From NCBI GenBank assembly GCA_000435975.1, contig FR884114.1, positions 12,224 to 76,223 on the forward strand: a stretch of 64,000 nt of DNA, written 5' to 3'. Under the pieces are notes generated by a model. That model saw only the letters and a list, made by a program, of their open reading frames with translations. It had not been told where the DNA came from and searched no databases. Below are positions 2,548-21,920 of the stretch, in pieces. The stretch is from Oscillibacter sp. CAG:241 (GTDB lineage Bacteria; Bacillota; Clostridia; Oscillospirales; Oscillospiraceae). The first letter of the stretch is position 1. Every line of letters begins with the position of its first letter. The translations under genes were made by a program, and so were the position numbers.

Positions 2548-2633
2548 GCCGGTGTGATGGAATGGTAGACGTAGCGGATTCAAAATCCGCCGGGGGTGAC
2601 TCCGTGTGGGTTCGAGTCCCACCACCGGCACCA
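2548..2633 (+). tRNA. tRNA-Leu (anticodon CAA)
   Basis: Acceptor stem GCCGGTG/CACCGGC, anticodon loop tTCAAAa, long type-II variable arm, GTTCGAGTC T-arm and encoded CCA. Confidence 0.85.
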
Positions 2634-3070
2634 TATCGAGTGGTCATAAGGGATTTCACTTATGGCCGCTCGATTTTTTCTGTTCTGTTATAATCTGATG
2701 CAGGGGAGCAGCATTTCTGTTACCTCCTTTTTGCGCAAAAAGCGGCTGCCGGTGCCTCCTGTGCATCGGCAGCCGCCCGCTGAATGGGGATATTTACTTG
2801 ATGAGTCCGCTTTCCTTCAGCAGGAGCTCAATATCGGTGCCCTTGACCTTTTTCAGGAGCACCTTGAGCATTTCCCTCTCCTTGAAGGACAGCGGCGCCT
2901 GGCTGATAGGCTTCTTGTCGATGGCGTAGTAGCAGGCACGCAGGATCTCACGCACATCGTACTTGCTGCCCCAGACCTCCGGCACGCCGCGGTCGATGTC
3001 AAGCAGCGTGTAGACCGACTCCATACCGGTACGCATGGAATACTCGGTGGTGAAGATGGTGTCACGGGGC

Positions 3071-3756
3071 GTCTCGGCGAACTGACCGATGAAGGCAAAG
3101 TTCACGGCGCCGTCGGGCACGACCTTGGGACGGTCAGATTCCTTGCGGGGTTGGAAGAAGGCGTTGATATAGGGCATAAAGCAGGTGGTGGTATTGCAGG
3201 CATCGTGGGCCAGCGCATGGATCTTTTCGGTGGGCACGCCGATGTGATACAGCCACTCACGGCAGACCTCCTCGCCGGTGCAGTCCCGCATGGCCTTTTT
3301 CACATAGTTGCCCTCTCTGTTGGTATTCAGAGAATACAGCCACACAAGCACCATGTTCTTATCCTGGGACTTGAATTGGGGCTGGCGGTTGATGGTCCAG
3401 GAAAGATACCAGTTGTCGGTGCTGTCCTTGACGGTGACAATACCGCCGGTGGTCACCTTGCCGGAGCGGGGATCACGCTTGCAGATGTTCCTAATATGCC
3501 GGATGATCTCCTCGTTGGAGGTGGCCACGGTAGCGCTCATCCAGTTGGTGGCGTCCACATCGGAGCAGAAGGCATCGGGGTTGCCGTACTCGCCGTGCTC
3601 CGCCTGCGCGGCAATGGCCTTCCACATATCCCAGGACTCACCTGCGCCGTTTTTCACGCCGGACAGGTCGGGGGCATGGGTCTGGTCGCCATAGCAGGAG
3701 GTATCGGTGCAGCAGCCGTTGGTGATGAACACCAGATCGTCCTCGATGAGGTCGAT
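3071..3756. repeat. 686-bp direct repeat, copy A (inside hydratase gene)
   Basis: Aligns without gaps to 4451-5136, roughly 90-93% identical, offset exactly 1380 bp (460 codons). Confidence 0.8.
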
Positions 3757-4450
3757 GGTCTGCTCCCTGCCGTCCTTGACATACACGATCTGCCGGGCAA
3801 CCTTCTTGTCGCCCTCAGTTTCGATGATGACATTCCTGACATCCATGCCATACTCGATATGCACACCGTGAGACTCCAGATATTTCACCAGCGGCAGGAT
3901 CATGCTTTCATACTGATTATACTTGGTGAAGCGCAGGGCGCTGAAATCGGGCAGGCCGTCGATGTGATGGACATAGCGGCACAGATATCGTTTCATCTCC
4001 AGAGCACTGGACCAACGCTGGAAAGCGAACATGGTCTGCCAATACAGCCAGAAGTTTGTATTCCAGAAGGAATCGGGCAGAACATCGGATATCTTCTTGT
4101 CCTCCAGATCCTTTTCCGGGGTCATAAACAGCTTGGACAGGGCCATGGCGGAGTCCTTGTCCAGCTTGAACTGCTTATCCGTGTGGGCATCCTCACCGCG
4201 GTTCACGCTGGCGCGGCACAGAGAATAGTTGGGATCGTGCTTGTTGAGCCAATAATACTCATCCAGAACAGAGATGCCCGGCGTCTCGATGGACGGAACA
4301 TCACGGAAGGTGTCCCACATGACCTCAAAATGGTTGTCCATCTCACGGCCGCCCCGCATAAAGAAGCCCTTGGTGATGTCCTTGCGGCCGTCGCAGCTGC
4401 CGCCTGCCAGGTCCAGCTTTTCTAATACATGGATGTGCTCGCCCTTCAGC

Positions 4451-5136
4451 GTCTCGGCAAATTGACCGATGAAGGCGAAGTTCACAGCGCCATCGGGCAC
4501 GACCTTCGGACGGTCAGACTCCTTACGAGGCTGGAAGAAGGAATTGATATACGGCATAAAGCAGGTGGTGGTGTTGCAGGCATCGTGTGCCAGCGCATCG
4601 ATCTTTTCGGTCGGCATGCCGATGTGGTACAGCCACTCACGGCAGACCTCCTCGCCAGTGCAGTCCCGCATGGCCTTCTTTACATAGTTGCCTTCCTTAT
4701 TGGTGTTCAGAGAATACAACCACACAAGCACCATGTTCTTATCTTGGGACTTGAACTGCGGCTGGCGGTTAATGGTCCAGGAGAGATACCAGTTGTCGGT
4801 GCTGTCCTTGACGGTGACAATGCCGCCGGTGGTTACCTTGCCGGAGCGCGGGTCACGCTTGCAAACATTCATAATGTGCTGAATGATCTCTTCATTGGAA
4901 GTGGCGACGGTAGCGCTCATCCAGTTGGTGGCATCCACATCGGAGCAGAATTTGTCCGGGTTGCCGTACTCGCCGTGCTCGGCCTGAGCAGCGATAGCTT
5001 TCCACATATCCCAGGAATCGCCCTTGCCGTTTTCAATGCCGGACAGATCGGGTGCATGAGTCTGGTCGCCATAGCAGGAGGTATCGGTGCAGCAGCCGTT
5101 GGTGATGAACACCAGATCGTCCTCGATGAGGTCGAT
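4451..5136. repeat. 686-bp direct repeat, copy B (5' part of hydratase ORF)
   Basis: Partner of copy A at 3071-3756. Confidence 0.8.
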
Positions 5137-5187
5137 AGAGATTTTTCCCTTTCCGTGTTTCATAGTACCATTATCGTATATTCAAAT

Positions 5188-5240
5188 TCTAAACTGAAAC
5201 GAAACTTTTGAAAATCCGGGCAGTTTCGTTTCAGTTTAGA
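5188..5240. promoter_or_regulatory. 18-bp perfect inverted repeat TCTAAACTGAAACGAAAC ... GTTTCGTTTCAGTTTAGA (17-nt spacer) in a divergent promoter region
   Basis: Lies between the hydratase start (5163, minus) and the flavodoxin-like start (5302, plus). The right arm recurs verbatim at 13939 and 23879. Confidence 0.6.
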
Positions 5241-5301
5241 ATTGCTTGCTACACTCTCCGCAGAAAATGTCGAAATAACGGTTTTTAAGGGAGTGACAGA
5301 C

Positions 5302-5814
5302 TTGAACTATGAAATAGCCTATTACAGTTTATCAGGCAATACAGAAAAGCTGGCATACGGCATTGCAAAGCGTCTTCCGGAAAATCAAGCTTTTTTGACG
5401 AACCTGCAAGAGGAAGAAGTTACCCTTGCGGCCGATGTGTATTTAGTAGGATTCGGCATAAACAACGGTACAGTCCCGCTAAAAGTCATGGACGCATTGG
5501 ACCGGCTGGCCGGAAAGAAGATATTCCTGTTTGTGACCTGCGGCATAGAGCCAAGTGAGGAATACAAGCGGCTTATCGAGCGCAAGATCGAACCTTTTCT
5601 GCCGGACGAATGCGACTATTGCGGCATTTTGCTGTGTCGAGGTCAGATAGCGGAGGAGGTGCTGAGCAAAATCCAAAGACAGTTCGCACAGCAACCGGAC
5701 GATCCTGCCATCAAAAAAATGATCTCCGAGGCAAAATTGTCCGAGGGGCATCCCGATGAAACGGATGCGGAAAACGCAGTGAGGTTTATCCGGGAAAAGC
5801 TTGATTCTTTCTAA
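5302..5814 (+). CDS. flavodoxin-like protein
   Basis: AYYSLSGNTEKLAYGIAKRL flavodoxin signature. TTG start 8 nt after AGGGAG; the in-frame ATG at 5309 is an alternative start. Confidence 0.65.
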   Translation: MNYEIAYYSLSGNTEKLAYGIAKRLPENQAFLTNLQEEEVTLAADVYLVGFGINNGTVPLKVMDALDRLAGKKIFLFVTCGIEPSEEYKRLIERKIEPFLPDECDYCGILLCRGQIAEEVLSKIQRQFAQQPDDPAIKKMISEAKLSEGHPDETDAENAVRFIREKLDSF

Positions 5815-5863
5815 CCGGCAAGCAGCATTTCAAAGATTCATTACATAAAAAGGAGTTTTTACC

Positions 5864-6118
5864 ATGAGAAAAGTTAAGATCATCACCGATTCCTGCGCAG
5901 ACCTGAGCGCAGAGCAACTCGAAAAATACGACATCGACTACGCCAGAATGTCCACGATCGAGGATGGCAAAGAGTCTCCGGCGCTTCTCACATGGACACC
6001 CGCAGAAGCACACAGACTTTACGAGACGATCCGTGGCGGAAAGCGTATCACGACAGCGCAGGTTTCCGTTGAAGAATTCAAAAGCTGTTTGAAAAATATC
6101 TGGGGCTTTATCAGTTAG
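5864..6118 (+). pseudogene. DegV/FakB-family fatty-acid-binding protein, N-terminal 84-aa fragment
   Basis: The KIITDSCADL DegV N-terminus ends at TAG 6116-6118 after about 80 residues, whereas full-length DegV is about 280 aa. Confidence 0.6.
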
Positions 6119-6474
6119 GGGCTGTCTATACAGGCCTTTTTGCTGTTCTTGGACATGCCTATCCGATCTGGTACGGCTTCAAAGGCGGCAAAGGATTTCT
6201 CGTCAGTCTTTCAACGATTTGGGTAACAGACTGGCGGGTCGGTCTGATCGTGACCGGAATGATGGTTGTACTGCTGCTTACCACAAAATATATGTCGCTT
6301 GCTACTGTTGCTGCGACGCTCTGCAGCCCATTGCTTCTGCTGCTGTTCAAAGCACCTGTATCCGTAATTTTGATAGACGCTGCAATCGTTATTTTTGTGG
6401 CGCTGCGGCATAAGGAAAACTTCAGGCGCTTGAAAGCCGGAACAGAATCAAAGTTTACATTAAGCACGCACTGA
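6073..6474 (+). pseudogene. PlsY (acyl-phosphate:glycerol-3-phosphate acyltransferase) C-terminal fragment without start codon
   Basis: Frame-1 translation AVYTGLFAVLGHAYPIWYGFKGGKGF...RHKENFRRLKAGTESK matches PlsY from about residue 85 to the end. It abuts the degV fragment in a different frame. Confidence 0.6.
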
Positions 6475-6519
6475 TAAATTTACAGAACAGGGACGATGCT
6501 TCGAGGAGGTAATGAACTT

Positions 6520-7437
6520 ATGTCTGAAAAATATATTCTTTATAATCCCTGTGCAGGCGGTCCGGAGACCGAGAAAGCCGTAAAAGCCTTGCAGGATGCC
6601 AATGAAGGGGCTGTGGCGATCAATATTTGCCGCATCATCAGTTATAAGACTTTTTTTAACGGATTAGACCCGAATGACACTGTGATCTTATGCGGCGGAG
6701 ACGGCACCCTGAATCGTTTTGTCAACGATGTTAACGGAATGAACATTCCCAATAAGCTCTACTACTACCCCACGGGAACCGGCAACGATTTTGCGAGGGA
6801 TGTCGGGCAAAAACCGTTTTCGGATCCAACGGTTTGCCTCAACCCATATTTTGAACGGCTACCTCGTGTAAGCGTTAAAGGAAAGTCTGAATTGTTCCTG
6901 AACAATGTCGGTTTCGGCATTGACGGTTATTGCTGTGAGGTTGGAGAAAAGCTCCGAGAGGAAAACAAGAAGAGGAAAAAGCCCAAGCCGGTAAATTATA
7001 CGAAGATCGCCATCACCGGGTTGCTGTTTCACTATAAGCCCAAGAATGTGACCGTCGTTGTTGACGGCAAACGCTATCAATATAAAAAAGTGTGGCTTGC
7101 CTCTGTCATGAACGGCAGGTTCTATGGCGGGGGTATGATGCCGACGCCGGAGCAGTACAGATTACGTGAAGACGGAAAGGTATCCATTCTGATATTCCAC
7201 GATGTCGGCAAACTGCGTGGACTAATGATCTTTCCGTCGATTTTCAGCGGCAAGCATCTGAAGTATACGAATCAGATGACGATTCTGGAAGGAAAGACCA
7301 TTCAAGTGAAATATAATGAGCCGGCACCGCTTCAGATCGACGGCGAAGTTGTACCGGAAGTCATGGAATATACGGTTCGGTCATGCGTTTCACCGGCAGA
7401 GAAAGCAAAACAGGACAGTGAAATGGCAGCTGTATAA
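6520..7437 (+). CDS. lipid kinase, diacylglycerol-kinase catalytic-domain family (YegS/BmrU-like)
   Basis: GGDGT motif and DAGK_cat architecture. GGAGG RBS 9 nt upstream. Confidence 0.8.
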   Translation: MSEKYILYNPCAGGPETEKAVKALQDANEGAVAINICRIISYKTFFNGLDPNDTVILCGGDGTLNRFVNDVNGMNIPNKLYYYPTGTGNDFARDVGQKPFSDPTVCLNPYFERLPRVSVKGKSELFLNNVGFGIDGYCCEVGEKLREENKKRKKPKPVNYTKIAITGLLFHYKPKNVTVVVDGKRYQYKKVWLASVMNGRFYGGGMMPTPEQYRLREDGKVSILIFHDVGKLRGLMIFPSIFSGKHLKYTNQMTILEGKTIQVKYNEPAPLQIDGEVVPEVMEYTVRSCVSPAEKAKQDSEMAAV

Positions 7438-7490
7438 ATGCGAAGATAAACGATATTATAATGGCGACAGGCCGATGGGAGATATTACAT

Positions 7491-8045
7491 ATGCATAGGA
7501 TATTCAGAAAAGATCAGGTATTGACGATACCGAATTTATTAAGTGTGATACGCTTGGCGCTGATTCCGCTGATCGTGTGGCTATATATAGGAAAGCAGGA
7601 ATATTCTGCTGCAGTGGCTGTGATTTTAATCTCCGGTGCAACGGATATTATTGACGGATTCATCGCCCGCAAATTCAATATGGTGTCAGACCTCGGAAAG
7701 ATTTTGGATCCCGTGGCAGACAAGCTGACGCAGGCTACGGTGATCCTCTGCTTGACGGTGAAATATCGCTGGATGCGCGGATTGATTGTTCTCTTTGTGG
7801 TCAAGGAGATCATTATGGCCGTGCTCGGGTATATGGCAATTCAAAAGAAAGATGTTGTTAACAGCGCAAAATGGTATGGCAAGCTCAACACCGTGGTTCT
7901 GTATCTGGTTATGACGTGCCTTATCTTGTTCCCGAGTATATCGGAAACGGTGGCAAATGTTCTGATCGGAATTTGCATTTGCGTTATGCTTATGTCCCTT
8001 ACGCTGTACATACGGTTTTACCTGAATCTGTTCCGCACGAACTGA
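7491..8045 (+). CDS. pgsA: CDP-alcohol phosphatidyltransferase (phosphatidylglycerophosphate synthase-like)
   Basis: DGFIAR-x8-G-x3-D-x3-D motif. Multi-TM protein with GGGAG RBS. Confidence 0.8.
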   Translation: MHRIFRKDQVLTIPNLLSVIRLALIPLIVWLYIGKQEYSAAVAVILISGATDIIDGFIARKFNMVSDLGKILDPVADKLTQATVILCLTVKYRWMRGLIVLFVVKEIIMAVLGYMAIQKKDVVNSAKWYGKLNTVVLYLVMTCLILFPSISETVANVLIGICICVMLMSLTLYIRFYLNLFRTN

Positions 8046-8077
8046 ATCAGCAAACCACAGATCCAAGGAGGGATAAA

Positions 8078-8799
8078 ATGGTTGTTGTTTACATACTGCT
8101 TGGCATTCTCGCCGTCCTGCTGCTCTATATTTGCTTCCTTGCAATTTGCAGCCTATGCGTCGATCCGAAAAAAGAATATGAGAAAAACAGCCGTTTTTAC
8201 CGCACACTGCTTACAGCGCTTCTGCCGCTGCTTTGAAGGTGCTGCGAATCAGAGTATATACAAGCGGACTGGAGAAGATACCTAAGAATCAAAAGCTGAT
8301 GTTTGTCGGAAACCATCGCTCCAATTTTGACCCGATCATTGAGTGGCTTGTGCTGAAACCGTGGGATATTGCGTTTATCTCAAAAGGCGAGAATTTTAAG
8401 ATTCCGTTTTTCGGACGAATTATTCGGAAATGCTGCTTTATGCCGATCGACCGGGAGAACCCGCGAAAGGCATTGAGGACGATCAATAAAGCTTCTGATC
8501 TGCTTCAGAGCGGCGAGGTCTCTATCGGTGTATATCCGGAGGGCACCCGAAGCAAAACCGGAGAATTGCTCCCGTTTCACGACGGTGTTTTCCACATTGC
8601 CAAAAAGGCCGGCACACCGATTGTCGTTATGTCCATCAGGGGAACGGAACAGATCCATAAGAATGTCCTACGCCGGCATTCCGATGTATATTTGGACATC
8701 GTGCAGGTGATTCCTGCAAGCGATGTGGAAAACGGAACCACACATACGATCGGCGCAGAAATACGGAATATGTTGCTCGATAGTATAAAAGATAAATAA
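8078..8799 (+). CDS. plsC: 1-acyl-sn-glycerol-3-phosphate acyltransferase (PlsC family); reading frame broken near 8200-8236
   Basis: AAGGAGGG RBS + ATG 8078 gives a TM N-terminus that stops at TGA 8234-8236. The catalytic domain (NHRSNFD, PEGTRS) continues in another frame from 8233 with no ATG/GTG and no RBS of its own. Confidence 0.7.
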
Positions 8800-8830
8800 T
8801 ACAGTAGTTTTATTACGAGGGGTCACAACC

Positions 8831-9643
8831 ATACTCAAGCGAACGATAACCGGTGCGTTTATAACAGCCGCCGTTTACTTAATCCTATTCTATTCTTACA
8901 TACCGGCGGTCATTTTGGTGGCTACCGCCATCCTTTGCGCCTTTTCGGTGTATGAAATATACCGCGCAACCGGCACAATCGAAAATGAAGTGATGTTTAC
9001 TGTTTCTATGCTCATTGCCGTTTTGGCTGCTTTCGTACACATTCCCCGTTCCGAGATCGTACTGACGGTGGCATTTATTTTTGCAACTGTAGCATCCATT
9101 TGGCTGATGATACGGCAAAAACATTGCAGCTTGGACTCTCCCGTCAAGGCATTTTTCATTGTGCTCCTGATCATTGTGCTCTTTAAAGCCATTCCGGAGC
9201 TGAGAAGCCTGAATAGCGGACTGTATTATCTGATTTTTGCTGTCACATTGTGCTTTGTCACGGATGTCGCCGCCTATCTGATCGGGCGAGGTTTGGGACG
9301 GCATAAGCTAATGCCGAAGGTAAGCCCAAATAAGACCATAGAAGGCTCCCTTGGCGGCCTATTGTTCGGGGTGCTATTGGCACTGCTTGGCGGGATCGTT
9401 GTTGAGAAATTTGTAAAGATTGAAGTAAATTACGGAACGCTGGCACTTTGGGCGCTTATGACCTCCGTTGTCGGCCAGTTCGGTGATCTGTCTATGTCAG
9501 TGATCAAACGTATTTGCGGCATCAAAGACTATGGCAATCTGCTGCCGGGACACGGCGGTATACTGGACAGGTTTGACAGTCATTTATTTGCCGTTCCGTT
9601 TACTTATCTTTTCTGCACATACGCAGGCGGCTTCTTTTTATAA
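8831..9643 (+). CDS. cdsA: phosphatidate cytidylyltransferase
   Basis: CdsA signature KTIEGSLGG. The first canonical start is GTG 8915, but the in-frame upstream sequence encodes a CdsA-like TM1 back to about 8822 after a GAGGGG RBS, so the start is uncertain. Confidence 0.75.
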   Translation: MLKRTITGAFITAAVYLILFYSYIPAVILVATAILCAFSVYEIYRATGTIENEVMFTVSMLIAVLAAFVHIPRSEIVLTVAFIFATVASIWLMIRQKHCSLDSPVKAFFIVLLIIVLFKAIPELRSLNSGLYYLIFAVTLCFVTDVAAYLIGRGLGRHKLMPKVSPNKTIEGSLGGLLFGVLLALLGGIVVEKFVKIEVNYGTLALWALMTSVVGQFGDLSMSVIKRICGIKDYGNLLPGHGGILDRFDSHLFAVPFTYLFCTYAGGFFL

Positions 9644-9661
9644 GCGCAGGAGGAATCATCT

Positions 9662-12600
9662 ATGAAAAAATACCGTGCCGGGATCGACATCGGCTCCACG
9701 ACCGTAAAGCTTGTGGTACTTGATGACGCCGATGAGATCCTTTACGGAGAATACAGACGGCATCAGGCCCACACGCAGGAAACCCTATCCACTTTGTTGG
9801 AAGAAGCCAAGAAATCTGTTGGGGAATGTGAACTGCAGGTTTGCATTACCGGCTCCGGTGCGATCAATCTGGGGAAAGCGTTGGATATTTCCTTTGTCCA
9901 GGAGGTCGTTGCCGTCGCTACAGCCCTGAAAAAATGTGCGCCGCAGACGGATGTGGCGATTGAACTTGGCGGCGAGGATGCTAAGATCATATACTTTACC
10001 GGCGGATTAGAGGAGCGAATGAACGGTGTCTGCGCCGGCGGAACCGGCTCTTTCATCGATCAAATGGCATCGCTGCTGCAAACGGATGCCGCCGGACTGA
10101 ATAGAGAGGCTGAGCAGTACAAGCAGATCTACCCGATCGCAGCACGCTGCGGCGTATTTGCGAAAACAGATATTCAGCCCTTGATCAATGAAGGGGCAAC
10201 CAAAGCGGACCTTGCAGCATCTATTTTTCAGGCAGTCGTGAACCAGACGATCTCCGGTCTTGCCTGCGGAAAGCCGATCCGGGGATGCGTGGCATTTCTC
10301 GGAGGTCCGCTGCATTTTCTGCCGGAACTGAAAAAGGCATTTGTACGGACTCTTGGTTTGACAGCGGAAACGACTGTTGATCCGGATCACTCCCATCTGT
10401 TTGCCGCCATGGGCGCTGCAATGGAAAGCACGGAAAAAGACACTGTCCCAATCGACACCCTGATCGAGCGTCTGAAAAACGGCGTCTCGATCTCTTTTGA
10501 AATGCCCCGGCTTCCGGCTCTATTTGAAAGTCACGCAGAATATGAGCAGTTCTGCTGCAGACACGCTCGGGCTTCCGTTGCCCGTGGTGAGCTTTCCGCC
10601 TATCGAGGGAACTGCTATCTGGGAATCGACGCTGGTTCTACGACAACCAAGATGGCGCTGATCGGGGAAAACGGTGAACTGCTGTATTCTTACTACACGA
10701 ACAACAACGGCAACCCAATCGAGGCGGCAAAAAAGGGTATCCACGAACTGCAAACGCTAATGCCGGGGAATGCAAAAATCGTCCGGGCGTGCTCTACCGG
10801 CTACGGAGAGGCACTGCTGCAGGCTGCCTTTTCTCTGGATGACGGAGAAGTGGAAACGATTGCTCACTGTACGGCCGCTTCTTTCTTCGATCCAAAAGTG
10901 GACTGTGTGCTGGACATTGGCGGTCAGGATATGAAATGTATCCGTCTGAAAAACGGTGCTGTGGACAGTATCATGCTTAACGAAGCCTGCTCCTCTGGCT
11001 GCGGTTCCTTTATTGAAAACTTTGCAAACTCTTTAGGATATACTGCAGAAGAGTTCGCACAAACCGCACTATTTGCCGAACACCCGGTTGACCTCGGTAC
11101 CCGGTGCACGGTTTTCATGAATTCCAATGTCAAGCAGGCACAAAAAGAAGGTGCCTCGGTTTCGGATATTTCCGCCGGCCTTGCCTATTCCGTGATCAAA
11201 AACGCTTTGTATAAGGTCATCAAGCTGTCCTCGGCGGAGGAGCTTGGCAGCCATATCGTCGTGCAGGGCGGTACTTTTCATAACAAGGCTGTCTTGCGGG
11301 CGTTTGAAGAAATTGCCGGTGCAGAAGTGATTTGCCCGGATATTTCCGGCGTGATGGGTGCTTTCGGTGCCGCATTGATCGCCAGACGCAATTACACCGG
11401 AGCACCGACACCGACTAAGATGCTTTCACTGGAGCAGATCGAGGCGCTGACCTATTCCTCTTTCACAAGACGCTGCGGCGGCTGTGCCAACCATTGTATG
11501 CTGACGGTAAATGTTTTTGACGGAGAGCGCCGCCACATCACAGGAAATCGCTGTGAAAAGATGGTCGGCAATGCCGAGCGGAAAAAAGCTGCACCCAATA
11601 TGGTTGAATTCAAGCGCCGATGCATATTTGGCTATGAGCCGCTTGCAGAGTCAGCTGCCGCACGGGGGACGATCGGTATTCCCCGGGTGCTGAACCTATA
11701 TGAAAACTACCCGTTTTGGGCAACCTTTTTCAAACAGCTGCATTTCCGGGTCATCTTATCCCCCTTTTCAAGCCGAAAGATCTACGAGCTTGGGATGGAG
11801 TCAATCCCATCCGAATCGGAATGTTACCCCGCAAAGCTGGCGCACGGCCATGTACAGTGGCTCATCAACCAAGGCATCAAAACGATCTTTCACCCCTGCG
11901 TATTCTACGAACACCAGGAAACGCTGGGAGCACAGAACCATTTTAATTGCCCCATTGTTGTTTCATATCCTGAAAACATCAAAAACAATGTGGAAGCCGT
12001 TACCAATGGAGCCGTGCGCTACATACGCCCATTTATGGCGTTTACCGATGAAAAGACGGTTGCTGACCGCATGGTAAAGCTCTGCCGTGAGGAATGGAAT
12101 ATTCCCGCACCGGAGGTGCATGCGGCAGTAAAAGCGGCATGGGCAGAACAGCAGCGGGTCAAGGCAGATATTCGTACGGAAGGCAAGCGCCTGCTCAATC
12201 AGATGAAGCATAACGGCGAGTGCGGAATCGTGCTGGCGGGGCGGCCGTATCATATCGACCCCGAAATCAACCACGGGATCCCGGAACTGATTGCCTCCTA
12301 CGGTCTGACGGTTTTTACTGAGGATAGTCTTCCCATCGATTTTGAGCCGTCCCGGCCCTTGCGTGTTGTGGATCAGTGGGTATATCATTCCCGGCTGTAC
12401 AATGCAGCGGAATTTGTCTGCCAACATGATAAATTGGAGATGATTCAGCTCAATTCTTTCGGATGCGGACTTGATGCCGTAACGACAGATCAGGTAAGCG
12501 AGATTCTGGAGGCTTCCGGCAAGCTGTATACGCTTTTGAAGATCGACGAGGTCGCCAATCTCGGCGCTGTCCGTATCCGAATCCGCAGCTTGCTCTCTGC

Positions 12601-13903
12601 TATGGCTATGCGAAAGCAGGATCAAAGCAGGGCGACGGCAAAGCCTGTGGCGTATCACCGAACAGAGTTCACCAAAGAAATGCGGGAAAAGGGGTATACC
12701 ATTCTTGCGCCGCAAATGAGTCCGATCCATTTTGATATTTTGGAGCCCGTGTTCCGCAAGCACGGATATAACCTGGTTGTTCTGGACAATGACAATCGCA
12801 GTGCTGTGAATATGGGACTCAAATATGTCAATAACGATGCCTGCTATCCTTCTATTACGGTGGTCGGACAATTTATGGATGCCGTACTTTCCGGCAAATA
12901 TGATACCGACCGTTTGGCAATCGTTATGACACAGACCGGCGGATGCTGTCGTGCCAGCAACTATGTATCCTTCATTCGCCGCGCCTTGGATAAGGCCGGA
13001 TACTCCCATATTCCGGTCATTTCCCTGAACGCCAACGGGATGGAGAAAAATGAGGGTTTCAGCCTGTCCGCCGGTTTAGTCACGGATGCCGCAAAAACGA
13101 TCGTCTACGGAGATCTTTTTATGCGCTGCCTGTACCGTGTGCGACCGTATGAGGTCATACCCGGTTCTGCCGATGCGCTCCATAAAAAGTGGCAGGATAT
13201 TTGCATCGACTCACTCATAAATTCAAAAACGCAGTACACCTATAAGGAAGTATGCCGTGGAATCGTCAATGCGTTTGACAGCTTCCCCATCGATGAAACG
13301 ATCCGTAAGCCGAGGGTCGGCATTGTCGGTGAGATCCTTGTGAAGTATATGCCGCTGGCAAACAACCACTTGGTGGAACTGCTGGAACGGGAAGGTGCCG
13401 AGGTTGTTGTTCCGGATCTGCTGGACTTCTTCAATTACTGTGTTTTCGGCTCCCAATACAAGGCGGAATACCTCGGCACCAAAAAATCTTCGGTCATCGT
13501 ATCCAAGGCGGCAATAAGGCTGATTGCCGCTCTGCGCAAACCGGCAACTGATGCGCTGAACGAAAGCAAACGGTTTGAGGCCCCATTGTCTGTTTACCGG
13601 ATTGCTGAAATGACAAAACCCTTTTTGTCTTTGGGCAATCTATACGGTGAGGGGTGGTTCTTAGCCGGAGAAATGATCGAACTGATCACACATGGCACGC
13701 CGAATGTAGTTTGTATTCAGCCGTTTGCGTGTCTTCCAAACCATGTTGTAGGCAAGGGCGTGATCAAAGCGCTGAAAAAAGCATACCCGCAAAGCAATAT
13801 TGCTGCGGTGGATTATGACCCCGGTGCCAGCGAGGTCAATCAGCTGAACCGCATCAAGCTTATGCTGTCCACAGCAAAGAAAAACATAGGTCTCGATGGC
13901 TGA
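9662..13903 (+). CDS. fused acyl-CoA dehydratase activase (two BadF/BadG/BcrA/BcrD-type ATPase domains) + 2-hydroxyacyl-CoA dehydratase-like domain; candidate plasmalogen synthase (PlsA-PlsR-type fusion)
   Basis: 1413 aa. AGIDIGSTTVKL and YLGIDAGSTTTKMAL actin-fold ATPase N-termini, Cys-rich Fe-S region, C-terminal dehydratase-like region. Embedded in a phospholipid gene cluster. Confidence 0.7.
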   Translation: MKKYRAGIDIGSTTVKLVVLDDADEILYGEYRRHQAHTQETLSTLLEEAKKSVGECELQVCITGSGAINLGKALDISFVQEVVAVATALKKCAPQTDVAIELGGEDAKIIYFTGGLEERMNGVCAGGTGSFIDQMASLLQTDAAGLNREAEQYKQIYPIAARCGVFAKTDIQPLINEGATKADLAASIFQAVVNQTISGLACGKPIRGCVAFLGGPLHFLPELKKAFVRTLGLTAETTVDPDHSHLFAAMGAAMESTEKDTVPIDTLIERLKNGVSISFEMPRLPALFESHAEYEQFCCRHARASVARGELSAYRGNCYLGIDAGSTTTKMALIGENGELLYSYYTNNNGNPIEAAKKGIHELQTLMPGNAKIVRACSTGYGEALLQAAFSLDDGEVETIAHCTAASFFDPKVDCVLDIGGQDMKCIRLKNGAVDSIMLNEACSSGCGSFIENFANSLGYTAEEFAQTALFAEHPVDLGTRCTVFMNSNVKQAQKEGASVSDISAGLAYSVIKNALYKVIKLSSAEELGSHIVVQGGTFHNKAVLRAFEEIAGAEVICPDISGVMGAFGAALIARRNYTGAPTPTKMLSLEQIEALTYSSFTRRCGGCANHCMLTVNVFDGERRHITGNRCEKMVGNAERKKAAPNMVEFKRRCIFGYEPLAESAAARGTIGIPRVLNLYENYPFWATFFKQLHFRVILSPFSSRKIYELGMESIPSESECYPAKLAHGHVQWLINQGIKTIFHPCVFYEHQETLGAQNHFNCPIVVSYPENIKNNVEAVTNGAVRYIRPFMAFTDEKTVADRMVKLCREEWNIPAPEVHAAVKAAWAEQQRVKADIRTEGKRLLNQMKHNGECGIVLAGRPYHIDPEINHGIPELIASYGLTVFTEDSLPIDFEPSRPLRVVDQWVYHSRLYNAAEFVCQHDKLEMIQLNSFGCGLDAVTTDQVSEILEASGKLYTLLKIDEVANLGAVRIRIRSLLSAMAMRKQDQSRATAKPVAYHRTEFTKEMREKGYTILAPQMSPIHFDILEPVFRKHGYNLVVLDNDNRSAVNMGLKYVNNDACYPSITVVGQFMDAVLSGKYDTDRLAIVMTQTGGCCRASNYVSFIRRALDKAGYSHIPVISLNANGMEKNEGFSLSAGLVTDAAKTIVYGDLFMRCLYRVRPYEVIPGSADALHKKWQDICIDSLINSKTQYTYKEVCRGIVNAFDSFPIDETIRKPRVGIVGEILVKYMPLANNHLVELLEREGAEVVVPDLLDFFNYCVFGSQYKAEYLGTKKSSVIVSKAAIRLIAALRKPATDALNESKRFEAPLSVYRIAEMTKPFLSLGNLYGEGWFLAGEMIELITHGTPNVVCIQPFACLPNHVVGKGVIKALKKAYPQSNIAAVDYDPGASEVNQLNRIKLMLSTAKKNIGLDG

Positions 13904-13938
13904 CGAAATGAAGCAAAACGGAGTTTTTTCTCCGGTTT

Positions 13939-13956
13939 GTTTCGTTTCAGTTTAGA
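13939..13956 (+). promoter_or_regulatory. GTTTCGTTTCAGTTTAGA motif copy upstream of ftsH
   Basis: Exact 18-mer, 48 nt before the ftsH ATG. Preceded by an imperfect hairpin+T6 at 13916-13938 that ends the upstream gene. Confidence 0.5.
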
Positions 13957-14003
13957 AATGGACAGTATACTCACCACAATGAACGAAAAGGAGTCGGGTA
14001 AGT

Positions 14004-15833
14004 ATGAAAGAAGTTAAGCCACCGAGAAAACCCCTGATCTATTATTACGGCATTGTTTTGTTGGTCATTCTGGTTTTCAACATGGTCATCTCTCCGTTGC
14101 TTGCAAATGCCAGAGTGAAAGAGGTTGATTACGGTACCTTTATGAAGATGATCGAGGATAAAGATGTCGGCAGCGTAGAGGTTGCCGATTCCGAGATCGT
14201 ATTCACAGACAAGGACAATACCCAGATCTACAAGACCGGCGAAATGAACGACCCCACCCTGACCGAGCGGCTGTATGCATCGGGAGCTAAATTCACACGG
14301 AATATTGAAAAAGGCATGTCTCCGCTGCTCAGCTTTTTCCTGACATTTATTCTGCCGATCCTGATCTTTGCTGCCCTCGGACAGTATATGGCGAAGAAAA
14401 TGATGTCCCAGGCAGGCGGCCCAAATGCGATGGCGTTCGGTATGGGAAAAAGCAATGCCAAGGTCTACGTTCCGTCCACGGACGGCATCCGTTTTGCCGA
14501 TGTCGCTGGTGAGGATGAAGCAAAGGAAAATCTTGCCGAAATCGTCGATTACCTACATAATCCCAAGAAGTATTCCGATGTCGGCGCATCTATGCCCAAG
14601 GGCGTATTGCTTGTAGGCCCTCCGGGTACCGGCAAAACGATGCTGGCTAAGGCTGTTGCAGGCGAAGCCGGTGTTCCGTTTTTCTCCATGTCCGGCTCGG
14701 AATTTGTGGAGATGTTCGTCGGTATGGGTGCATCAAAAGTGCGTGACCTGTTCAAGCAGGCCAAGGAAAAAGCGCCCTGTATCGTCTTTATCGATGAGAT
14801 CGATGCCATCGGTAAAAAGCGCGATGGTCAGATAGGCGGCAACGATGAGCGTGAACAGACGCTTAACCAGCTTCTGACCGAGATGGACGGCTTTGAAGGC
14901 AACAACGGCGTCATCATTCTGGCGGCGACCAACCGCCCGGAGTCCCTTGACCCGGCGCTGACCCGCCCCGGCCGCTTTGACCGCCGTGTTCCCGTGGAGC
15001 TGCCTGACCTCGCAGGTCGTGAAGCCATCCTCAAGGTCCATGCGAAGAAGATCAAAACGGCGGACAATGTGGACTTCCATACCATCGCCCGTATGGCCTC
15101 CGGAACCTCCGGCGCAGAGCTTGCGAACATCATCAACGAAGCTGCCCTCCGTGCGGTGCGCAGTGGGCGCACAGTCGTAGAGCAGGCAGACCTGGAGGAA
15201 AGCATTGAGGTCGTCATCGCCGGCTATCAGAAGAAAAACGCCATCATGACCGATGATGAAAAGAAGGTCGTCGCCTACCATGAGATTGGCCATGCGCTGG
15301 TCGCTGCTTTGCAGACGGCTTCCGCACCGGTGCAGAAGATCACGATCATCCCCAGAACCTCCGGCGCACTGGGCTACACCATGCAGGTCGAGCAGAACGA
15401 TAAGGTTCTGATGACCAAGGAAGAACTGGAAAACAAAATTGCCACGCTGACCGGTGGCCGTGCGGCGGAGGAGATCGTATTCGGGCAGATTACAACCGGT
15501 GCCTCTAATGACATCGAGCAAGCAACCAAACTTGCCCGTGCGATGATTACCCGCTACGGTATGACCGATGAATTCGATATGGTTGCGATGGAGACGGTCA
15601 GCAACCAGTACCTCGGCGGCGATACCTCGCTTGCCTGCTCGGCGGATACACAAAAAGAAATCGATCAGAAGGTCGTGGAGACTGTCAAAAAGCAGCATGA
15701 AAAGGCTCGCCGTCTGCTGGCAGACAATCGCAAGAAGTTGGATGAACTTGCAAGCTATCTTTACGAGAAAGAGACCATTACGGGCAGCGAATTCATGACG
15801 ATTTTGAACAGAAAGGATGGGAATGCGGTATGA
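14004..15833 (+). CDS. ftsH: ATP-dependent zinc metalloprotease FtsH
   Basis: N-terminal TM, Walker [12 protein letters not shown] region and HEIGHAL zinc site. Confidence 0.95.
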
Positions 15834-16381
15834 AAAGAAAAAACGGCTTTGGATGGAGCGAATTGATCGTCGGCGTGCTCCTGATCCTGCTTGGCATCTT
15901 TGCCTTTATCCGCCCGGAAAGCATGCTGACGGGAGCGGTCGTTATTTACGGCGTGATCGCCATTGTGATGGGCATTGAAGATCTCGTGGTATATGCCCGG
16001 CTTTCCCGCTTTATCGGCTTCGGTCCGATGCTGTCGTTGATCTCTGGGATTTTAAGCGTTATGTGCGGCGTGATGCTGATCGCCAATCCCAATGTCGGGA
16101 AATGGGCACTGACGATTCTTCTCCCGATTTGGTTTATCGCCCACTGCATATCCGAGCTGACAAGGACAAACCTGATTCGTTTGATTGGAAATCCGTTTTA
16201 TTACTATTTCTCACTGATTCTGAACATTCTCGGGCTTGTGCTCGGATTTGTGATGATCTTTAGTCCGGCGCTTTCCTTTGTAACGCTCAGAGCGATCTGC
16301 TATATGGTGGCAATCTATCTGATCCTGTTCGGCATCGAAAGCATTATTGCGGCTTTTGCCCGCAGAAACTCCGACTGGTAA
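15830..16381 (+). CDS. HdeD/DUF308-family small membrane protein
   Basis: Repeated GxxxIxxGI hydrophobic repeats. Start overlaps the ftsH stop (ATGA). Confidence 0.55.
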   Translation: MKRKNGFGWSELIVGVLLILLGIFAFIRPESMLTGAVVIYGVIAIVMGIEDLVVYARLSRFIGFGPMLSLISGILSVMCGVMLIANPNVGKWALTILLPIWFIAHCISELTRTNLIRLIGNPFYYYFSLILNILGLVLGFVMIFSPALSFVTLRAICYMVAIYLILFGIESIIAAFARRNSDW

Positions 16382-16396
16382 TACAGGAGATGCAGT

Positions 16397-17068
16397 ATGG
16401 AAGAAATGAAAAAGGAGCAGATCCCTCAGATCGGCAGCCGTTTGCGGCAGCATATTCTGAAGATCCCGGAGGCGGTTTTCCAAGCCAGCGGAATTATCAT
16501 CAACGGACGCAGGATCAAAAGCTTTGTCTTTACCACCGATCTTGCAATTATTCGGAATTGTGACGCCGATGCCGTGTTTGCGGTCTATCCCTTTACTCCG
16601 CAGCAAGCGATCAGCGATGCAATCATTCGCTCCTCTTATATCCCGGTGTTCTGCGGCGTTGGTGGCGGGACGACCAAGGGAATAAGGACGGTATCCTTGG
16701 CGAAGGACGTGGAGTCGCAAGGTGCTATGGGAGTTGTGCTGAATGCACCGATTTCCGATCTGAATCTTCTGGCTGTAAGCAACGCCGTAGATATTCCGGT
16801 GATTATCACGGTGACGCATGAGGGCACGGACATTGCCAGCCGTTTGCAGCATGGCGCTGCGATCTTAAATATCGCCTGCGGAAAAGAGACTCCGAATGTT
16901 GTACGAAAAATCCGCTCGGAGTTTCCGAATGTTCCGCTGGTTGCATCCGGTGGGAAAACCAACGAAAGCATCTATGAGACAATCGTGGCCGGGGCCAACG
17001 CTATTACCTATACGCCGCCCTCGACGCAGGAATTGTTTAAGGAACTGATGGCAAAGTATCGAACTTAA
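16397..17068 (+). CDS. phosphate-binding (beta/alpha)8-barrel-like protein of unknown function (PcrB/ThiE/NanE-like pattern)
   Basis: 223 aa. CGVGGG and C-terminal ASGG...AGANAI glycine motifs typical of phosphate-binding TIM barrels. Family not resolvable by eye. Confidence 0.35.
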   Translation: MEEMKKEQIPQIGSRLRQHILKIPEAVFQASGIIINGRRIKSFVFTTDLAIIRNCDADAVFAVYPFTPQQAISDAIIRSSYIPVFCGVGGGTTKGIRTVSLAKDVESQGAMGVVLNAPISDLNLLAVSNAVDIPVIITVTHEGTDIASRLQHGAAILNIACGKETPNVVRKIRSEFPNVPLVASGGKTNESIYETIVAGANAITYTPPSTQELFKELMAKYRT

Positions 17069-17107
17069 CGGTATTATAAACAACAAAGATTATGGGAGCA
17101 AACCAAT

Positions 17108-18868
17108 ATGTTTGAGCTATTAAAGAAAATGAAACGCAAGGAGTGGCTGACTGCCGGGCTTTGCGCCATTCTGGTATTGGGTCAGATCTATTTTGATCTG
17201 CGCCTGCCGGACTATATGAGCGACCTGACAGTACTTATCAAGACCCCTGGCAGCGCAATGAGTGACATCTGGCAAACAGGGCTTGAAATGCTCGGCTGCA
17301 CGCTCGCAAGCGCTCTGCTTGCGGTAATTTGCGGATACTTGGCAGCGCAGACTGCCGCAGGCTTCAGCTATACAATCCGTGAAAAGGTGTTTAATCAGGT
17401 GGCGGATTTCGGTCAGTATGAAATGCAGCAGTTTTCTGTTCCGAGCCTGATCAACCGCACGACGAATGACATCACGCAGATCCAGATGCTTGTGGCAATG
17501 GGCCTGCAAATTATGATCAAATCTCCGATCATGGCGATTTGGGCGGTCATAAAGATCATCAACAAAAGCTGGACGCTGTCTGTTATCACCGCCGGCTTTG
17601 TCGTGGCGCTGCTTGCCATGATGGCAATCGTCATTGCGGTGATCGTGCCGCGTGTCCGCCGTGTGCAGAAATTGACGGATAACATCAACCGTGTATCCCG
17701 TGAAAATCTGACGGGCATCAATGTGGTGCACGCTTATAATGCCGAGAAATATCAAGCGGAAAAATTTGAGCAGGCCAACGACGAACTGATGAGAACGCAG
17801 CTGTTCAATCAGCACGGATTTGCGATGCTTATGCCGGCTGTCTCGTTCGCTATGAATACTTTGGCATTGACCGTCTATTGGGTAGGCGCATCTATCGTGG
17901 AAAAGGTCGCACTTACAGATGTCGCAGCGAGGATCGCAACATTCGGTGACATTATGGTATTCGGCACCTATGCAACCTATGTCATCATGTCCATTATGAT
18001 GATGGTCATGATTGTAATGTTCTTCCCTTCGGCCCAGGTTTCTGCCGGGCGTATCAATGAGGTGCTGAATGCAAAAATCATCTTACGGGAAGGAAAATCG
18101 GACAACGCTCCCGAAGTGGGCACAGTCGAGTTCAAGGATGTTTCCTTCCACTATCCCACCTCGGATAAGGATGTATTGGAAAACATCAGCTTTAAGGTGA
18201 ATAAAGGTGAAACCATTGCATTTATCGGTGCGACCGGCAGCGGTAAAACAACGCTCATCAGCCTGGCAGCTCGCTTTTACGACACGACCTCCGGCACGGT
18301 CCTGATCGACGGAAAGGATATAAAAGAATACACCTTCGACGCCCTTTACGACCGTATCGGATATGTAACGCAGAAAGCGGTTCTGTTTGCCGGTGACATC
18401 CGGGATAATGTGCTGTTCGGTGAAAGCGCCGCAGTTCCTACCGACGAAAACGCACAGAAAGCCTTGGAACTTGCCCAGGCAAGTGAATTTGTCGAAAAAC
18501 TGCCCGGCAAATTAGATGCACCGATTTCACAGGGCGGATCCAATGTTTCCGGCGGACAGAAGCAGCGTTTGGCAATCGCCCGTGCGTTGGCGAGAAATCC
18601 CGAGATTTTGATTTTCGATGACTCCTTCTCCGCATTGGACTACAAAACCGATGCAGCGCTGCGAAAAGGTCTTGCCGAAAAGCTCGGCGGCGTTACCTGC
18701 ATGATCGTTGCCCAGAGAATCGGTACGATCCGCAACGCCGATAAGATCGTCGTTCTGGATGAAGGCAAGGCCGTTGGGATCGGTACGCATGAGGAACTGA
18801 TAAAGAATTGTGCTGTCTATCGAGAAATTGCCATGTCGCAGTTGTCCGCCGAAGAACTGGGCGCATAA
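17108..18868 (+). CDS. ABC exporter half-transporter (permease + ATPase)
   Basis: Six-TM N-terminus, Walker A GATGSGKTT and canonical VSGGQKQRLAIARAL signature. Confidence 0.9.
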   Translation: MFELLKKMKRKEWLTAGLCAILVLGQIYFDLRLPDYMSDLTVLIKTPGSAMSDIWQTGLEMLGCTLASALLAVICGYLAAQTAAGFSYTIREKVFNQVADFGQYEMQQFSVPSLINRTTNDITQIQMLVAMGLQIMIKSPIMAIWAVIKIINKSWTLSVITAGFVVALLAMMAIVIAVIVPRVRRVQKLTDNINRVSRENLTGINVVHAYNAEKYQAEKFEQANDELMRTQLFNQHGFAMLMPAVSFAMNTLALTVYWVGASIVEKVALTDVAARIATFGDIMVFGTYATYVIMSIMMMVMIVMFFPSAQVSAGRINEVLNAKIILREGKSDNAPEVGTVEFKDVSFHYPTSDKDVLENISFKVNKGETIAFIGATGSGKTTLISLAARFYDTTSGTVLIDGKDIKEYTFDALYDRIGYVTQKAVLFAGDIRDNVLFGESAAVPTDENAQKALELAQASEFVEKLPGKLDAPISQGGSNVSGGQKQRLAIARALARNPEILIFDDSFSALDYKTDAALRKGLAEKLGGVTCMIVAQRIGTIRNADKIVVLDEGKAVGIGTHEELIKNCAVYREIAMSQLSAEELGA

Positions 18869-18883
18869 GGAGGTGCTCTGTAA

Positions 18884-20689: not shown

Positions 20690-20708
20690 TCAGAAGGGAG
20701 AGACAACC

Positions 20709-21311
20709 ATGAAATCCTTGGCAATCGAAAGAGAATTCGGAAGCGGCGGCCGTGAGATCGGTATGCGTGTTGCCGAATTGGCAGGAATACCTTACTATGA
20801 CGGTGAGTTGCTGATCAAAGCCGCTGAAGCCCAGGGTGTATCTATCGAACTGCTGAAAACCTACGACGAGCAGCGTACAGGTAGCTTTCTGTATGACATT
20901 GCTGCTTTTTCGGACTACGCACGTAACCGGAAGAACACAGTCTATGAGCTGTTCGAGGGAATTCGTCGGACAATGGTAAACATCGAGCTGAAAGGCCCTG
21001 CTGTTTTTATTGGCAGATGCTCCACGGTGATCCTCGGGGAAAGCCCTCGTGTTCTGAAATCATTTATTTATTCATCCGATACCGAGAAAAGGGTGGAACG
21101 CATTATCCGAACGGAAAATGTTTCGGAGACTGACGCAAAATATCTGATGCAGAAAAAGGATAGGGATCGGAAAAACTATTTCCGCTTCTGGACACAGAAG
21201 GAGTGGGCAGATAAGAGCAATTACGATATTCTGCTGAATACATCCGGCGTGTCCACGGAGGCATGTGCCCAAATGCTTCTTGCTGCGATAAGCGGCCAGC
21301 CACAGAAGTAA
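20709..21311 (+). CDS. cytidylate kinase-like family protein
   Basis: AIEREFGSGGREIG N-terminal P-loop-like motif of the Cytidylate_kin2 family. GGGAGAG RBS; the ORF-track start further upstream is inside the ABC gene. Confidence 0.65.
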   Translation: MKSLAIEREFGSGGREIGMRVAELAGIPYYDGELLIKAAEAQGVSIELLKTYDEQRTGSFLYDIAAFSDYARNRKNTVYELFEGIRRTMVNIELKGPAVFIGRCSTVILGESPRVLKSFIYSSDTEKRVERIIRTENVSETDAKYLMQKKDRDRKNYFRFWTQKEWADKSNYDILLNTSGVSTEACAQMLLAAISGQPQK

Positions 21312-21359
21312 TTCAGCATTTCCAACGGCCGCTATGCAAATCAAAGAGGTATCAAACTT

Positions 21360-21875
21360 ATGAAACATTTTTTGCGTTGCTTGCTTTACATAGCGGCCTT
21401 GGGTGTTGTGTTTTTTGTAGTCGGACGGTTAGTACCAAAGTCTTGGTTCAAAGCGGATCATTTCCCGTGGCGGTGCTATTCATATGAACAAGCAATATGG
21501 AAAGCGCTGCGTGTGAAGCAGTGGCAGGCAAAGGTGCCGGATATGAGCCGTATTTTTACAAATATCATGCCGGCAAAAAAGCTAAAGCGACAAACGCTTT
21601 CCGATTTGCCCAGAATGATCCAAGAAACCTGTGTTGCAGAGTGGACACACGGTATCTTATCGATTGCAGGGCTTGCAATGCTATGGTTCTGGCCTGGTAT
21701 AGGAGGTATTTGCATGACGGCCGTTTACATTTTGCTCGGCAATTTGCCATTTATTGTGGTACAGCGTTTCAACCGGCCTCGCTTACAAAAATTACTCTTA
21801 AAGCAACAGCGCAATATGCAAATTCGGAACTTACCACGATATGAGGAGCAGCTACTAACGACGATAGCACCGTAA
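21360..21875 (+). CDS. CrtO-like membrane acyltransferase (glycosyl-4,4'-diaponeurosporenoate acyltransferase family)
   Basis: C-terminal FIVVQRFNRPRLQKLL matches the IIVQRYNRPRL core of staphylococcal CrtO. Two TM segments. Confidence 0.6.
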   Translation: MKHFLRCLLYIAALGVVFFVVGRLVPKSWFKADHFPWRCYSYEQAIWKALRVKQWQAKVPDMSRIFTNIMPAKKLKRQTLSDLPRMIQETCVAEWTHGILSIAGLAMLWFWPGIGGICMTAVYILLGNLPFIVVQRFNRPRLQKLLLKQQRNMQIRNLPRYEEQLLTTIAP

Positions 21876-21920
21876 ACCCTTATCTCGCTTTTGCCGCACG
21901 TTACGAATGGATGGAATGTT

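Follow-up and report, generated by a model that had tools for sequence, protein, structure and literature searches.

The stretch of DNA analysed here, called the window below, comprises 64,000 nucleotides of Oscillibacter sp. CAG:241 and contains near its left end an oleate hydratase-like open reading frame (ORF) of 789 amino acids (aa; 2794-5163, minus strand), which NCBI lists as CDB27350.1 under the name 'myosin-crossreactive antigen'. GC content is ~64% at 1-2400, 45-53% at 5.2-49.7 kb and ~61% at 49.9-64 kb (~62% when taken from guaA to 64000); the value for the hydratase gene is between those of its flanking zones. The proteins encoded around it are exact matches to consecutive CAG:241 accessions, with an aminotransferase (CDB27348) and an SDR (CDB27349) on one side of the 789-aa ORF (CDB27350) and a flavodoxin (CDB27351) and a DegV fragment (CDB27352) on the other, and further exact matches are found for a CoA-enzyme activase (CDB27358), FtsH (CDB27359) and GuaA (CDB27391). 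When compared with other assemblies, the ORF reads as a composite of the chromosomal hydratase gene ohyA, minus its codons 1-46, and codons 1-238 of ohy', a hydratase remnant that lacks its 5' part and belongs to an element integrated at guaA (table 1).

Anatomy of the 789-residue reading frame

The ORF contains an ungapped direct repeat (window 3069-3756 and 4449-5136, 688 nt each), the copies of which are offset by exactly 1380 nt, i.e. by 460 codons. An earlier reading made from the letters alone (the sequence-only reading) had described this in-frame arrangement correctly but had put the identity of the copies at 90-93%, which is slightly high, since 617 of 688 positions agree (89.7%). Read in gene orientation, the repeat begins with 77 nt free of mismatches, and 57 of the 71 mismatches are at third codon positions; counted by codon, the copies show 52 synonymous and 12 non-synonymous differences, with an amino-acid identity of 94.8%. 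At the protein level, ORF residues 470-698 are present again as residues 10-238, and they equal residues 278-506 of the normal 597-aa enzyme. The duplicated part is a middle-to-late stretch of the hydratase and not its extreme C-terminus. A second copy is indeed fused to the hydratase core at LEKLDLAGG, as the sequence-only reading had it. The core restarts at codon 47/48 of the normal protein, with 'KGEHIHVLEKLDLAGG' at codon 48: the window reads '...FAET/LKGEHIHV' (with the slash marking the join), where the closest normal protein (P0001, 597 aa) has '...VRDGQM/KGEHIHV'. The normal N-terminal 46 residues, including GTGLAG, are gone from the ORF and are replaced by 238 residues, 9 of which are unrelated to the hydratase while 229 represent the second copy.

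The sole Pfam family found in the ORF is MCRA (PF06100; E = 1.4e-280), which matches in two stretches, the better one aligning ORF residues 239-718 with profile positions 26-495; profile positions 1-25 have no counterpart. Among the hydratases in the PDB, 4ia5 is the best match and aligns over its residues 43-591 with ORF residues 234-788 (E = 1.6e-196), and this alignment includes the RGGREM loop ('FMRGGREMDNHFE'), which is retained 3' of the join. This loop has a catalytic role in the MCRA family. It is shared, together with the entire C-terminal part, between the ORF and canonical MCRA hydratases such as those of Lactobacillus acidophilus (4IA5) and Staphylococcus aureus (OhyA, 7KAV). In contrast to these enzymes, however, the ORF lacks the Rossmann strand and GTGLAG and has residues 278-506 twice, so that the match to PF06100 comes with neither the Rossmann GxGxxG nor the single colinear chain of ~590-650 aa. 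The motif G.G..[GA] has zero occurrences in the 789-aa ORF; in the normal protein, it is represented by residues 29-34 (GTGLAG). Likewise, tblastn of the window did not find a hydratase N-terminal fragment anywhere outside the ORF. The loss of the GxGxxG N-terminus, which binds flavin adenine dinucleotide (FAD), and the absence of a Rossmann segment elsewhere in the window had both been noticed from the sequence alone and are borne out by these searches. Moreover, no Shine-Dalgarno sequence is evident upstream of the ORF start, which is the ATG of the remnant, unlike at the start of intact ohyA, which has GGAGG upstream.

Structural studies of MCRA hydratases (4IA5, 4UIR and 7KAV) reportedly found FAD to be required, and to our knowledge all characterised members of the family bind it via a Rossmann strand and GxGxxG. 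Because it has no GxGxxG motif, the ORF should have no FAD site. Whichever origin of the join holds, its 789-aa product is thus predicted to be incapable of working as a hydratase, and the ORF is probably best read as a non-functional composite rather than as a hydratase with a new domain.

Two sources meeting at a single point

The source of the DNA switches at 4448/4449, and the window is otherwise colinear with independent assemblies throughout. On the left side, 12 independent contigs (L001, L002, L014-L021, L023) carry the aminotransferase and SDR genes, tRNA-Leu, an intact 597-aa ohyA and a TetR gene; they match window 1-4448 with 97.7-98.8% identity, and every alignment ends at 4448. 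In this intact arrangement, the N-terminal part of ohyA (N_A) running into the following part (Y_A) reads ...GGACAGATGAAGGGC, and the intact ohyA N-terminus reads ...GACGGACAGATGAAGGGC. The order of aminotransferase and SDR is conserved in L001 and L014-L023. A single 597-aa ohyA lies between tRNA-Leu and TetR in 11 of 12 contigs from related strains, with L022 lacking ohyA at this place; none has tandem paralogs, which speaks against the collapse of two tandem genes that the sequence-only reading had named as its refuting scenario.

On the right side, ORF residues 1-238 have a 100% identical counterpart in a 328/329-aa protein that consists of MCRA only and is present in more than 20 assemblies. 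Here, too, 12 contigs (L003, L004 and L072-L081, among them ERZ28749338 contig_562 with a length of 2.64 Mb) match the window, at 99.6-100% identity and over up to 19.4 kb, from position 4449 on, and all of these matches end exactly at 4449. In these contigs, ohy' is an ORF of 328/329 aa with a C-terminus and a stop codon of its own, followed in 11 of the 12 by genes for HTH_17, a response regulator, a histidine kinase, an SDR and an MBL hydrolase. Isolates of Vescimonas fastidiosa and V. coprocola have exact matches of the flavodoxin, the DegV fragment, HTH_17 and the SDR, and the slot for ohy' is between flavodoxin and HTH_17. The ohy' genes of this group (P0121-P0148; V. fastidiosa, V. coprocola) have the same MKHGKGKIS start and the same upstream palindrome as the window ORF. 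The difference lies in what follows FAET, which is PRDTIFTTEYS... and a stop of its own in ohy' elsewhere but ohyA codon 47 in the window. One scaffold, POOL19-1_SAMEA4731456 scaffold_41 (represented by both L073 and L095), contains the remnant with its normal left neighbours and continues through to guaA and a phosphoribosyltransferase gene; its colinearity with the window extends from 4449 to ~54 kb. Piece by piece, colinear support for the right side comes from L072-L081 (4449-23902), L082-L091 (19126-39862) and L010/L011 (39760-61286).

The two copies of the repeat therefore do not come from one locus, as they would in a tandem duplication: the upstream copy matches the element remnant with 99.9-100% identity and the downstream copy ohyA with 97.7-98.8%, with 12 contigs in each case. 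The apparent duplication with its offset of 1380 bp is a simple consequence of how far the two parts extend, with the remnant spanning residues 278-506 and the chromosomal piece beginning at residue 47. In addition, the ~10% and mostly synonymous divergence between the copies reflects the separation of lineages in different genomes before capture by the element and not the age of a local duplication.

At the join itself, the element reads ...TTTGCCGAGACGC^CCCGTGACACC... and the chromosome ...GTGACGGACAGA^TGAAGGGCGAG... in gene orientation (with ^ marking the join point), and the window reads ...TTTGCCGAGACGC/TGAAGGGCGAG.... Neither microhomology nor an att-like core is present at the join; the only shared 7-mer, CCGTGAC, is off the junction and predicts another product. 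X_B continuing into C_B reads ...GAGACGCCCCGTGAC, with element-specific single-nucleotide polymorphisms (SNPs) at 4459 and 4462, and the remnant running into its own C-terminus reads ...TTTGCCGAGACGCCCCGTGAC. Position 4459 is the last SNP of this kind, and the join is located 10 nt beyond it, inside an exact repeat of ~170 nt common to ohy' and ohyA; from 4458 on, the remnant as present in L003 equals ohyA for ~170 nt (window 3078-2911 in ohyA). In other words, the element-derived sequence ends just where it is no longer distinguishable from ohyA, and a random cellular breakpoint in the 990-nt remnant would lie this near to the repeat edge only ~2% of the time. On the codon-47 side, there is no repeat in the window and no haplotype break, with A-type strains being near-identical for 700 nt upstream.

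Distribution of the join

Among ~15 billion proteins, the 789-aa product occurs on exactly one contig, a 2013-era metagenome contig of 158,811 nt, and related strains do not show the arrangement. The ORF belongs to the 963-member cluster of P0001, in which all but one of the 14 other members listed have 597 aa, the exception being a fragment of 369 aa, and none of the best matches to the ORF is longer than 656 aa. When an 89-aa query spanning the junction was compared with 5.8 billion representative proteins, no match spanned the junction: matches of high identity covered one half only, and those covering ~89% of the query were just ~60% identical and represented ordinary N-termini. At the nucleotide level, a degenerate pattern for FAET-LKGEHI is absent from 185,579 GTDB genomes and from JGI metagenomes, and a 35-mer of the stretch shared by ohy' and ohyA matched 47 GTDB genomes of many Clostridia, none of which has the flanks seen in the window. 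Both parent loci are very common: 2016 index blocks contain the aminotransferase, 3882 the activase and 12,408 the Zn-peptidase of the element. The guaA and ohyA loci are never on the same contig among those retrieved.

Two other proteins deserve mention, i.e. P0287, a 713-aa hydratase with an in-frame internal tandem duplication of 116 aa encoded on a 4.9-kb public metagenome contig, and P0210, in which a SusC/TonB-receptor-like N-terminus is fused to ohy', again on a public metagenome contig. Both look like assembly chimeras involving the hydratase gene.

The guaA element and the tRNA-Leu locus

Table 1. Features of the window that bear on the 789-aa ORF and its two source loci.
Feature	Position	Strand	Basis or remark
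Class-I/II aminotransferase, CDB27348.1	390-1580	+	Pfam, exact NCBI match to Oscillibacter sp. CAG:241
SDR, CDB27349.1	1573-2364	+	Pfam, exact NCBI match to Oscillibacter sp. CAG:241
tRNA-Leu(CAA)	2548..2633	+	ARAGORN
Chromosomal ohyA, second base of codon 47 to stop	2794..4448	-	Contig alignments, Pfam, 4ia5
C_A, C-terminal part of ohyA	2794-3068	-	ohyA part
X_A, ohyA residues 278-506	3069-3756	-	ohyA part
Y_A, ohyA residues 47-277	3757-4448	-	ohyA part
Blunt join, in frame	4448..4449	.	Reads ...GCCGAGACGC/TGAAGGGCGAG... in gene orientation
X_B, first 229 hydratase-derived codons of remnant ohy'	4449..5136	-	100% to L004, 99.9% to L003 and L072-L081
MKHGKGKIS, nine non-hydratase codons opening ohy'	5137..5163	-	Same start in P0121-P0148
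Perfect palindrome with 22-nt arms, between ohy' and flavodoxin gene	5185..5243	.	19-nt motif GTTTCGTTTCAGTTTAGAA in each arm
Portion of low-GC integrative element within the window	4449..49700	.	Composition, Pfam, colinearity, exact Vescimonas protein matches
Tyrosine integrase	48595-49662	convergent with guaA	Element end
guaA, CDB27391.1, integration target of the element	49758..51287	-	Exact NCBI match

The remnant ohy' is part of an integrative element. Its tyrosine integrase abuts the 3' end of guaA, with repeated TGTACC(C) sites adjoining, and in other host strains the site is variably occupied: it is near-empty in L006, holds other elements in L005, L007-L009 and L012, and holds the same element in L010, L011 and L095. 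Convergent integrase, TGTACC(C) sites and alternative occupants of the site are features shared with the guaA tyrosine-integrase elements known in Firmicutes, from which the present element differs by a large set of membrane-lipid genes, several of them truncated. This cargo forms a coherent set for membrane lipids and the envelope and comprises genes for diacylglycerol (DAG) kinase, CDP-alcohol transferase, PlsC, CdsA, the 1413-aa CoA-enzyme activase, FtsH, two ABC exporters, a CrtO-like acyltransferase, PAP2, an AI-2E transporter, cardiolipin synthase and a DUF1538 protein, and is accompanied by ParM-like, PcfM, PcfJ, YodL, RecD2-like and YqaJ genes. The portion of the element within the window, in which PcfJ, PcfM, YodL and ParM-like genes are present, yielded neither a relaxase nor a type IV secretion gene; MobA/MobL is found to the left of the remnant in L080 only. 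The element is near-clonal, with 99-100% identity across cohorts, and is common to two Vescimonas species.

Variants of ohy' have different C-termini past the conserved stretch (P0121 versus P0138), the X segment of P0145 is a mosaic, and L003 and L004 part 120 nt past the point equivalent to the junction. As these variant C-termini and mosaic X segments show, the remnant exchanges sequence with resident hydratase genes, which makes the locus recombination-prone in cells and also confusing for assemblers.

Besides ohy', the element carries several conserved gene remnants, as fragments of DegV and PlsY are fixed in it, too: at 5864-6474 of the window, a blunt join links the N-terminal 84 aa of DegV with the C-terminal ~125 aa of PlsY, and this is the case in every other copy of the element that was examined. 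Records of Vescimonas isolates contain the identical 84-aa fragment of DegV. Furthermore, the 19-nt motif GTTTCGTTTCAGTTTAGAA has four exact occurrences, where none would be expected, at 5187-5205(-), 5223-5241(+), 13939-13957(+) and 23879-23897(+). One copy is 46 nt upstream of FtsH and another ~40 nt upstream of cardiolipin synthase, and the start of the 789-aa ORF is 24 nt downstream of a copy. The 3' end of the motif resembles a -10 box, and the element encodes a sigma-70 region-4 protein (31460-31924). The motif is a candidate promoter or operator of the membrane-lipid genes of the element. To the right of guaA, a segment of ~495 nt (56772-57266) is present in the window, L006, L009 and L011 and absent in L005, L007, L008, L010 and L012; within this small insertion/deletion polymorphism, 56889-56915 and 57056-57082 form perfect inverted repeats of 27 nt.

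Besides guaA, the DNA 3' of tRNA-Leu(CAA) is another hot spot of integration. L022 departs from the window exactly at 2633 and has a conjugative element there, without ohyA-TetR, and other strains have different elements just upstream of TetR (loci L014-L023). The ohyA-TetR module has a GC content of ~56%, as compared with 64% in its flanks, and may itself be an acquired islet. The neighbouring aminotransferase, which is of the alpha-oxoamine-synthase type and is annotated as 8-amino-7-oxononanoate synthase or glycine C-acetyltransferase, overlaps with the SDR gene by 8 nt, and the pair is kept beside tRNA-Leu and ohyA in all related strains. By analogy, this pairing resembles that of serine palmitoyltransferase and ketoreductase in sphingolipid synthesis.

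In a related species, the ohy gene of L024 has an out-of-frame internal deletion (9930-10010) in the N-terminal FAD-binding region, and gene callers start it at M47 (551-aa P0007); this deletion may represent natural pseudogenisation or another assembly defect. A recurrent breakpoint at codon 47, as suggested by the 551-aa proteins P0003 and P0007, could be ruled out, since the deletion in L024 just makes M47 the first usable start.

Discussion

An important question is whether the join at 4448/4449 was made in a living cell or in the course of assembling the genome. We favour the latter, i.e. an error in assembling the metagenome species Oscillibacter sp. CAG:241, to which we assign a probability of roughly 0.6. 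CAG genomes, as reportedly set out by Nielsen et al. in 2014, are metagenomic-species assemblies of short reads recruited to co-abundance gene groups. Both flanks of the join are independently supported while the junction is unsupported, and on the ohy' side the breakpoint is at a repeat common to the two joined sequences. Such a position at the edge of a repeat favours a mis-join, because short-read contigs tend to end there. In addition, a blunt join between copies of ~90% identity, lying in tandem and in the same orientation, is a signature of an under-collapsed false duplication. In all these respects, i.e. supported sides, break at a repeat edge, tandem copies and a blunt join, the locus is like the false duplications and mis-joins known to occur at diverged repeats in draft and metagenome assemblies. 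The anomalies of P0287 and P0210, which are of the assembly type and affect the same gene, point in this direction as well. A contig leaving the element would have stopped at the point from which remnant and ohyA are identical, and might then have been abutted to the contig with chromosomal ohyA, without the two being either merged or kept apart, which would leave a false duplication of the under-collapsed type. We infer that the assembler rather than the cell made the join, and most likely no genome has the 789-aa ORF as a genuine feature.

Several observations weigh against an assembly error, however. The join does not fit any standard de Bruijn-graph error, there being no common k-mer across it. 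The contig has neither a gap nor a run of Ns. Contrary to what a simple break between de Bruijn unitigs would predict, the element side ends 10 nt into the repeat and not at k-1, and the chromosomal side starts at codon 47, at no detected repeat and no break between strain haplotypes. Also, the exact HTH_17, the SDR of 257 residues (SDR-257) and the common ohyA-linked TetR carry no CAG:241 accession. This would fit a strain that is truly without these genes, yet an incomplete assembly of recruited reads accounts for it equally well.

The most serious competing explanation, which we consider possible though clearly less probable than a mis-join, is a real rearrangement private to one strain, in which illegitimate, non-homologous recombination of the ohy' of the element with chromosomal ohyA generated an in-frame null allele without FAD binding. 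It would most plausibly have been an inversion or translocation between the guaA element and tRNA-Leu/ohyA, possibly aided by pairing of the X segments, and the resulting allele would be devoid of promoter-proximal TetR control, of the Rossmann strand and of FAD binding. The join is inside a deposited contig of 158.8 kb, is annotated as a single coding sequence and comes without Ns; no assembler mechanism that fits exactly was found; and the exact TetR, HTH_17 and SDR-257 are not found under CAG:241 accessions. Moreover, guaA and tRNA-Leu are both active recombination sites with varied elements, the variant C-termini and mosaic X segments of ohy' speak for exchange with resident ohy genes, and putative ohy pseudogenes exist in related genomes (L024). 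Yet no other assembly or protein has the join, although the two parent loci are present in thousands of samples, and a blunt join without microhomology is unusual in bacterial illegitimate recombination. For a cellular event, it would also be a coincidence that both breakpoints are in ohy-derived DNA and that one of them is at the edge of an exact repeat. Furthermore, in the near-empty site of L006, guaA is followed by genes for an FtsW-family protein, a penicillin-binding protein (PBP) and a DnaE-type polymerase, and not by ohyA. A plain deletion connecting the element to ohyA therefore looks unviable, because these genes, which are presumably essential, would be lost. An inversion in turn predicts a reciprocal junction, i.e. 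the TetR-linked N-terminus next to the C-terminus of the remnant and HTH_17, components of which were not found in the assembly.

Stated more specifically, the cellular alternative would be a true fusion in which ohy' of the widespread guaA element, located just downstream of GTTTCGTTTCAGTTTAGAA, became joined in frame to the host ohyA, resulting in an FAD-less MCRA protein with a duplicated middle and without the upstream region of ohyA or TetR. We regard this version, too, as possible but less probable than a mis-join; if true, it would be a case of a chromosomal lipid-detoxification gene caught in the act of being remodelled by a gene fragment from a mobile element.

Two further explanations can be given far less credit. 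It is highly improbable that an old duplication (intragenic or tandem) or a shuffling of domains gave rise to a hydratase-derived protein that has been maintained with its new N-terminal domain. Such an origin could draw on the ORF being open for 789 aa, on copies that differ mainly at synonymous sites and on an ORF start that follows a motif found ahead of the FtsH and cardiolipin synthase genes as well. In the upstream copy, however, near-perfect identity to the element remnant in other hosts implies that its divergence from X_A arose in separate lineages. No homologue of this architecture was found, related strains have a single 597-aa gene without tandem paralogs, and a functional protein is hardly compatible with the lack of GxGxxG and thus of an FAD site. 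Of the origins proposed by the sequence-only reading, this removes the old duplication, as no relative has the arrangement, and leaves domain shuffling with a new N-terminal domain unsupported, since the upstream copy is the element remnant. Recombination between two ohy paralogs comes nearest to the truth, inasmuch as two ohy-derived loci are joined, with the qualification that the second locus is a 5'-truncated remnant on an element. The divergence between the copies, which had been taken to argue against an assembly problem, does so for a collapse of two tandem genes but not for a chimeric join of two loci. Finally, the idea that the join arose when separate contigs were concatenated for analysis has a negligible chance of being correct: the join is blunt and without microhomology, as would then be expected, but NCBI has the full 789-aa CDB27350.1 on one contig, and the two partial products that would be expected are not on record.

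Overall, the 789-aa ORF has little weight as a biological discovery. Even if the join were real, it would represent a null allele of a well-known enzyme in a single strain and not a new protein family, and CDB27350.1 should not be used as evidence for a new MCRA architecture. More generally, a remnant that is located on a prevalent mobile element and is ~90% identical to a resident gene, with exact stretches in between, can yield convincing in-frame 'domain duplications' in metagenome-derived genomes. Of greater interest than the ORF are its surroundings, i.e. a near-clonal and common gut element with membrane-lipid genes, a recurring 19-nt motif and fixed gene fragments.

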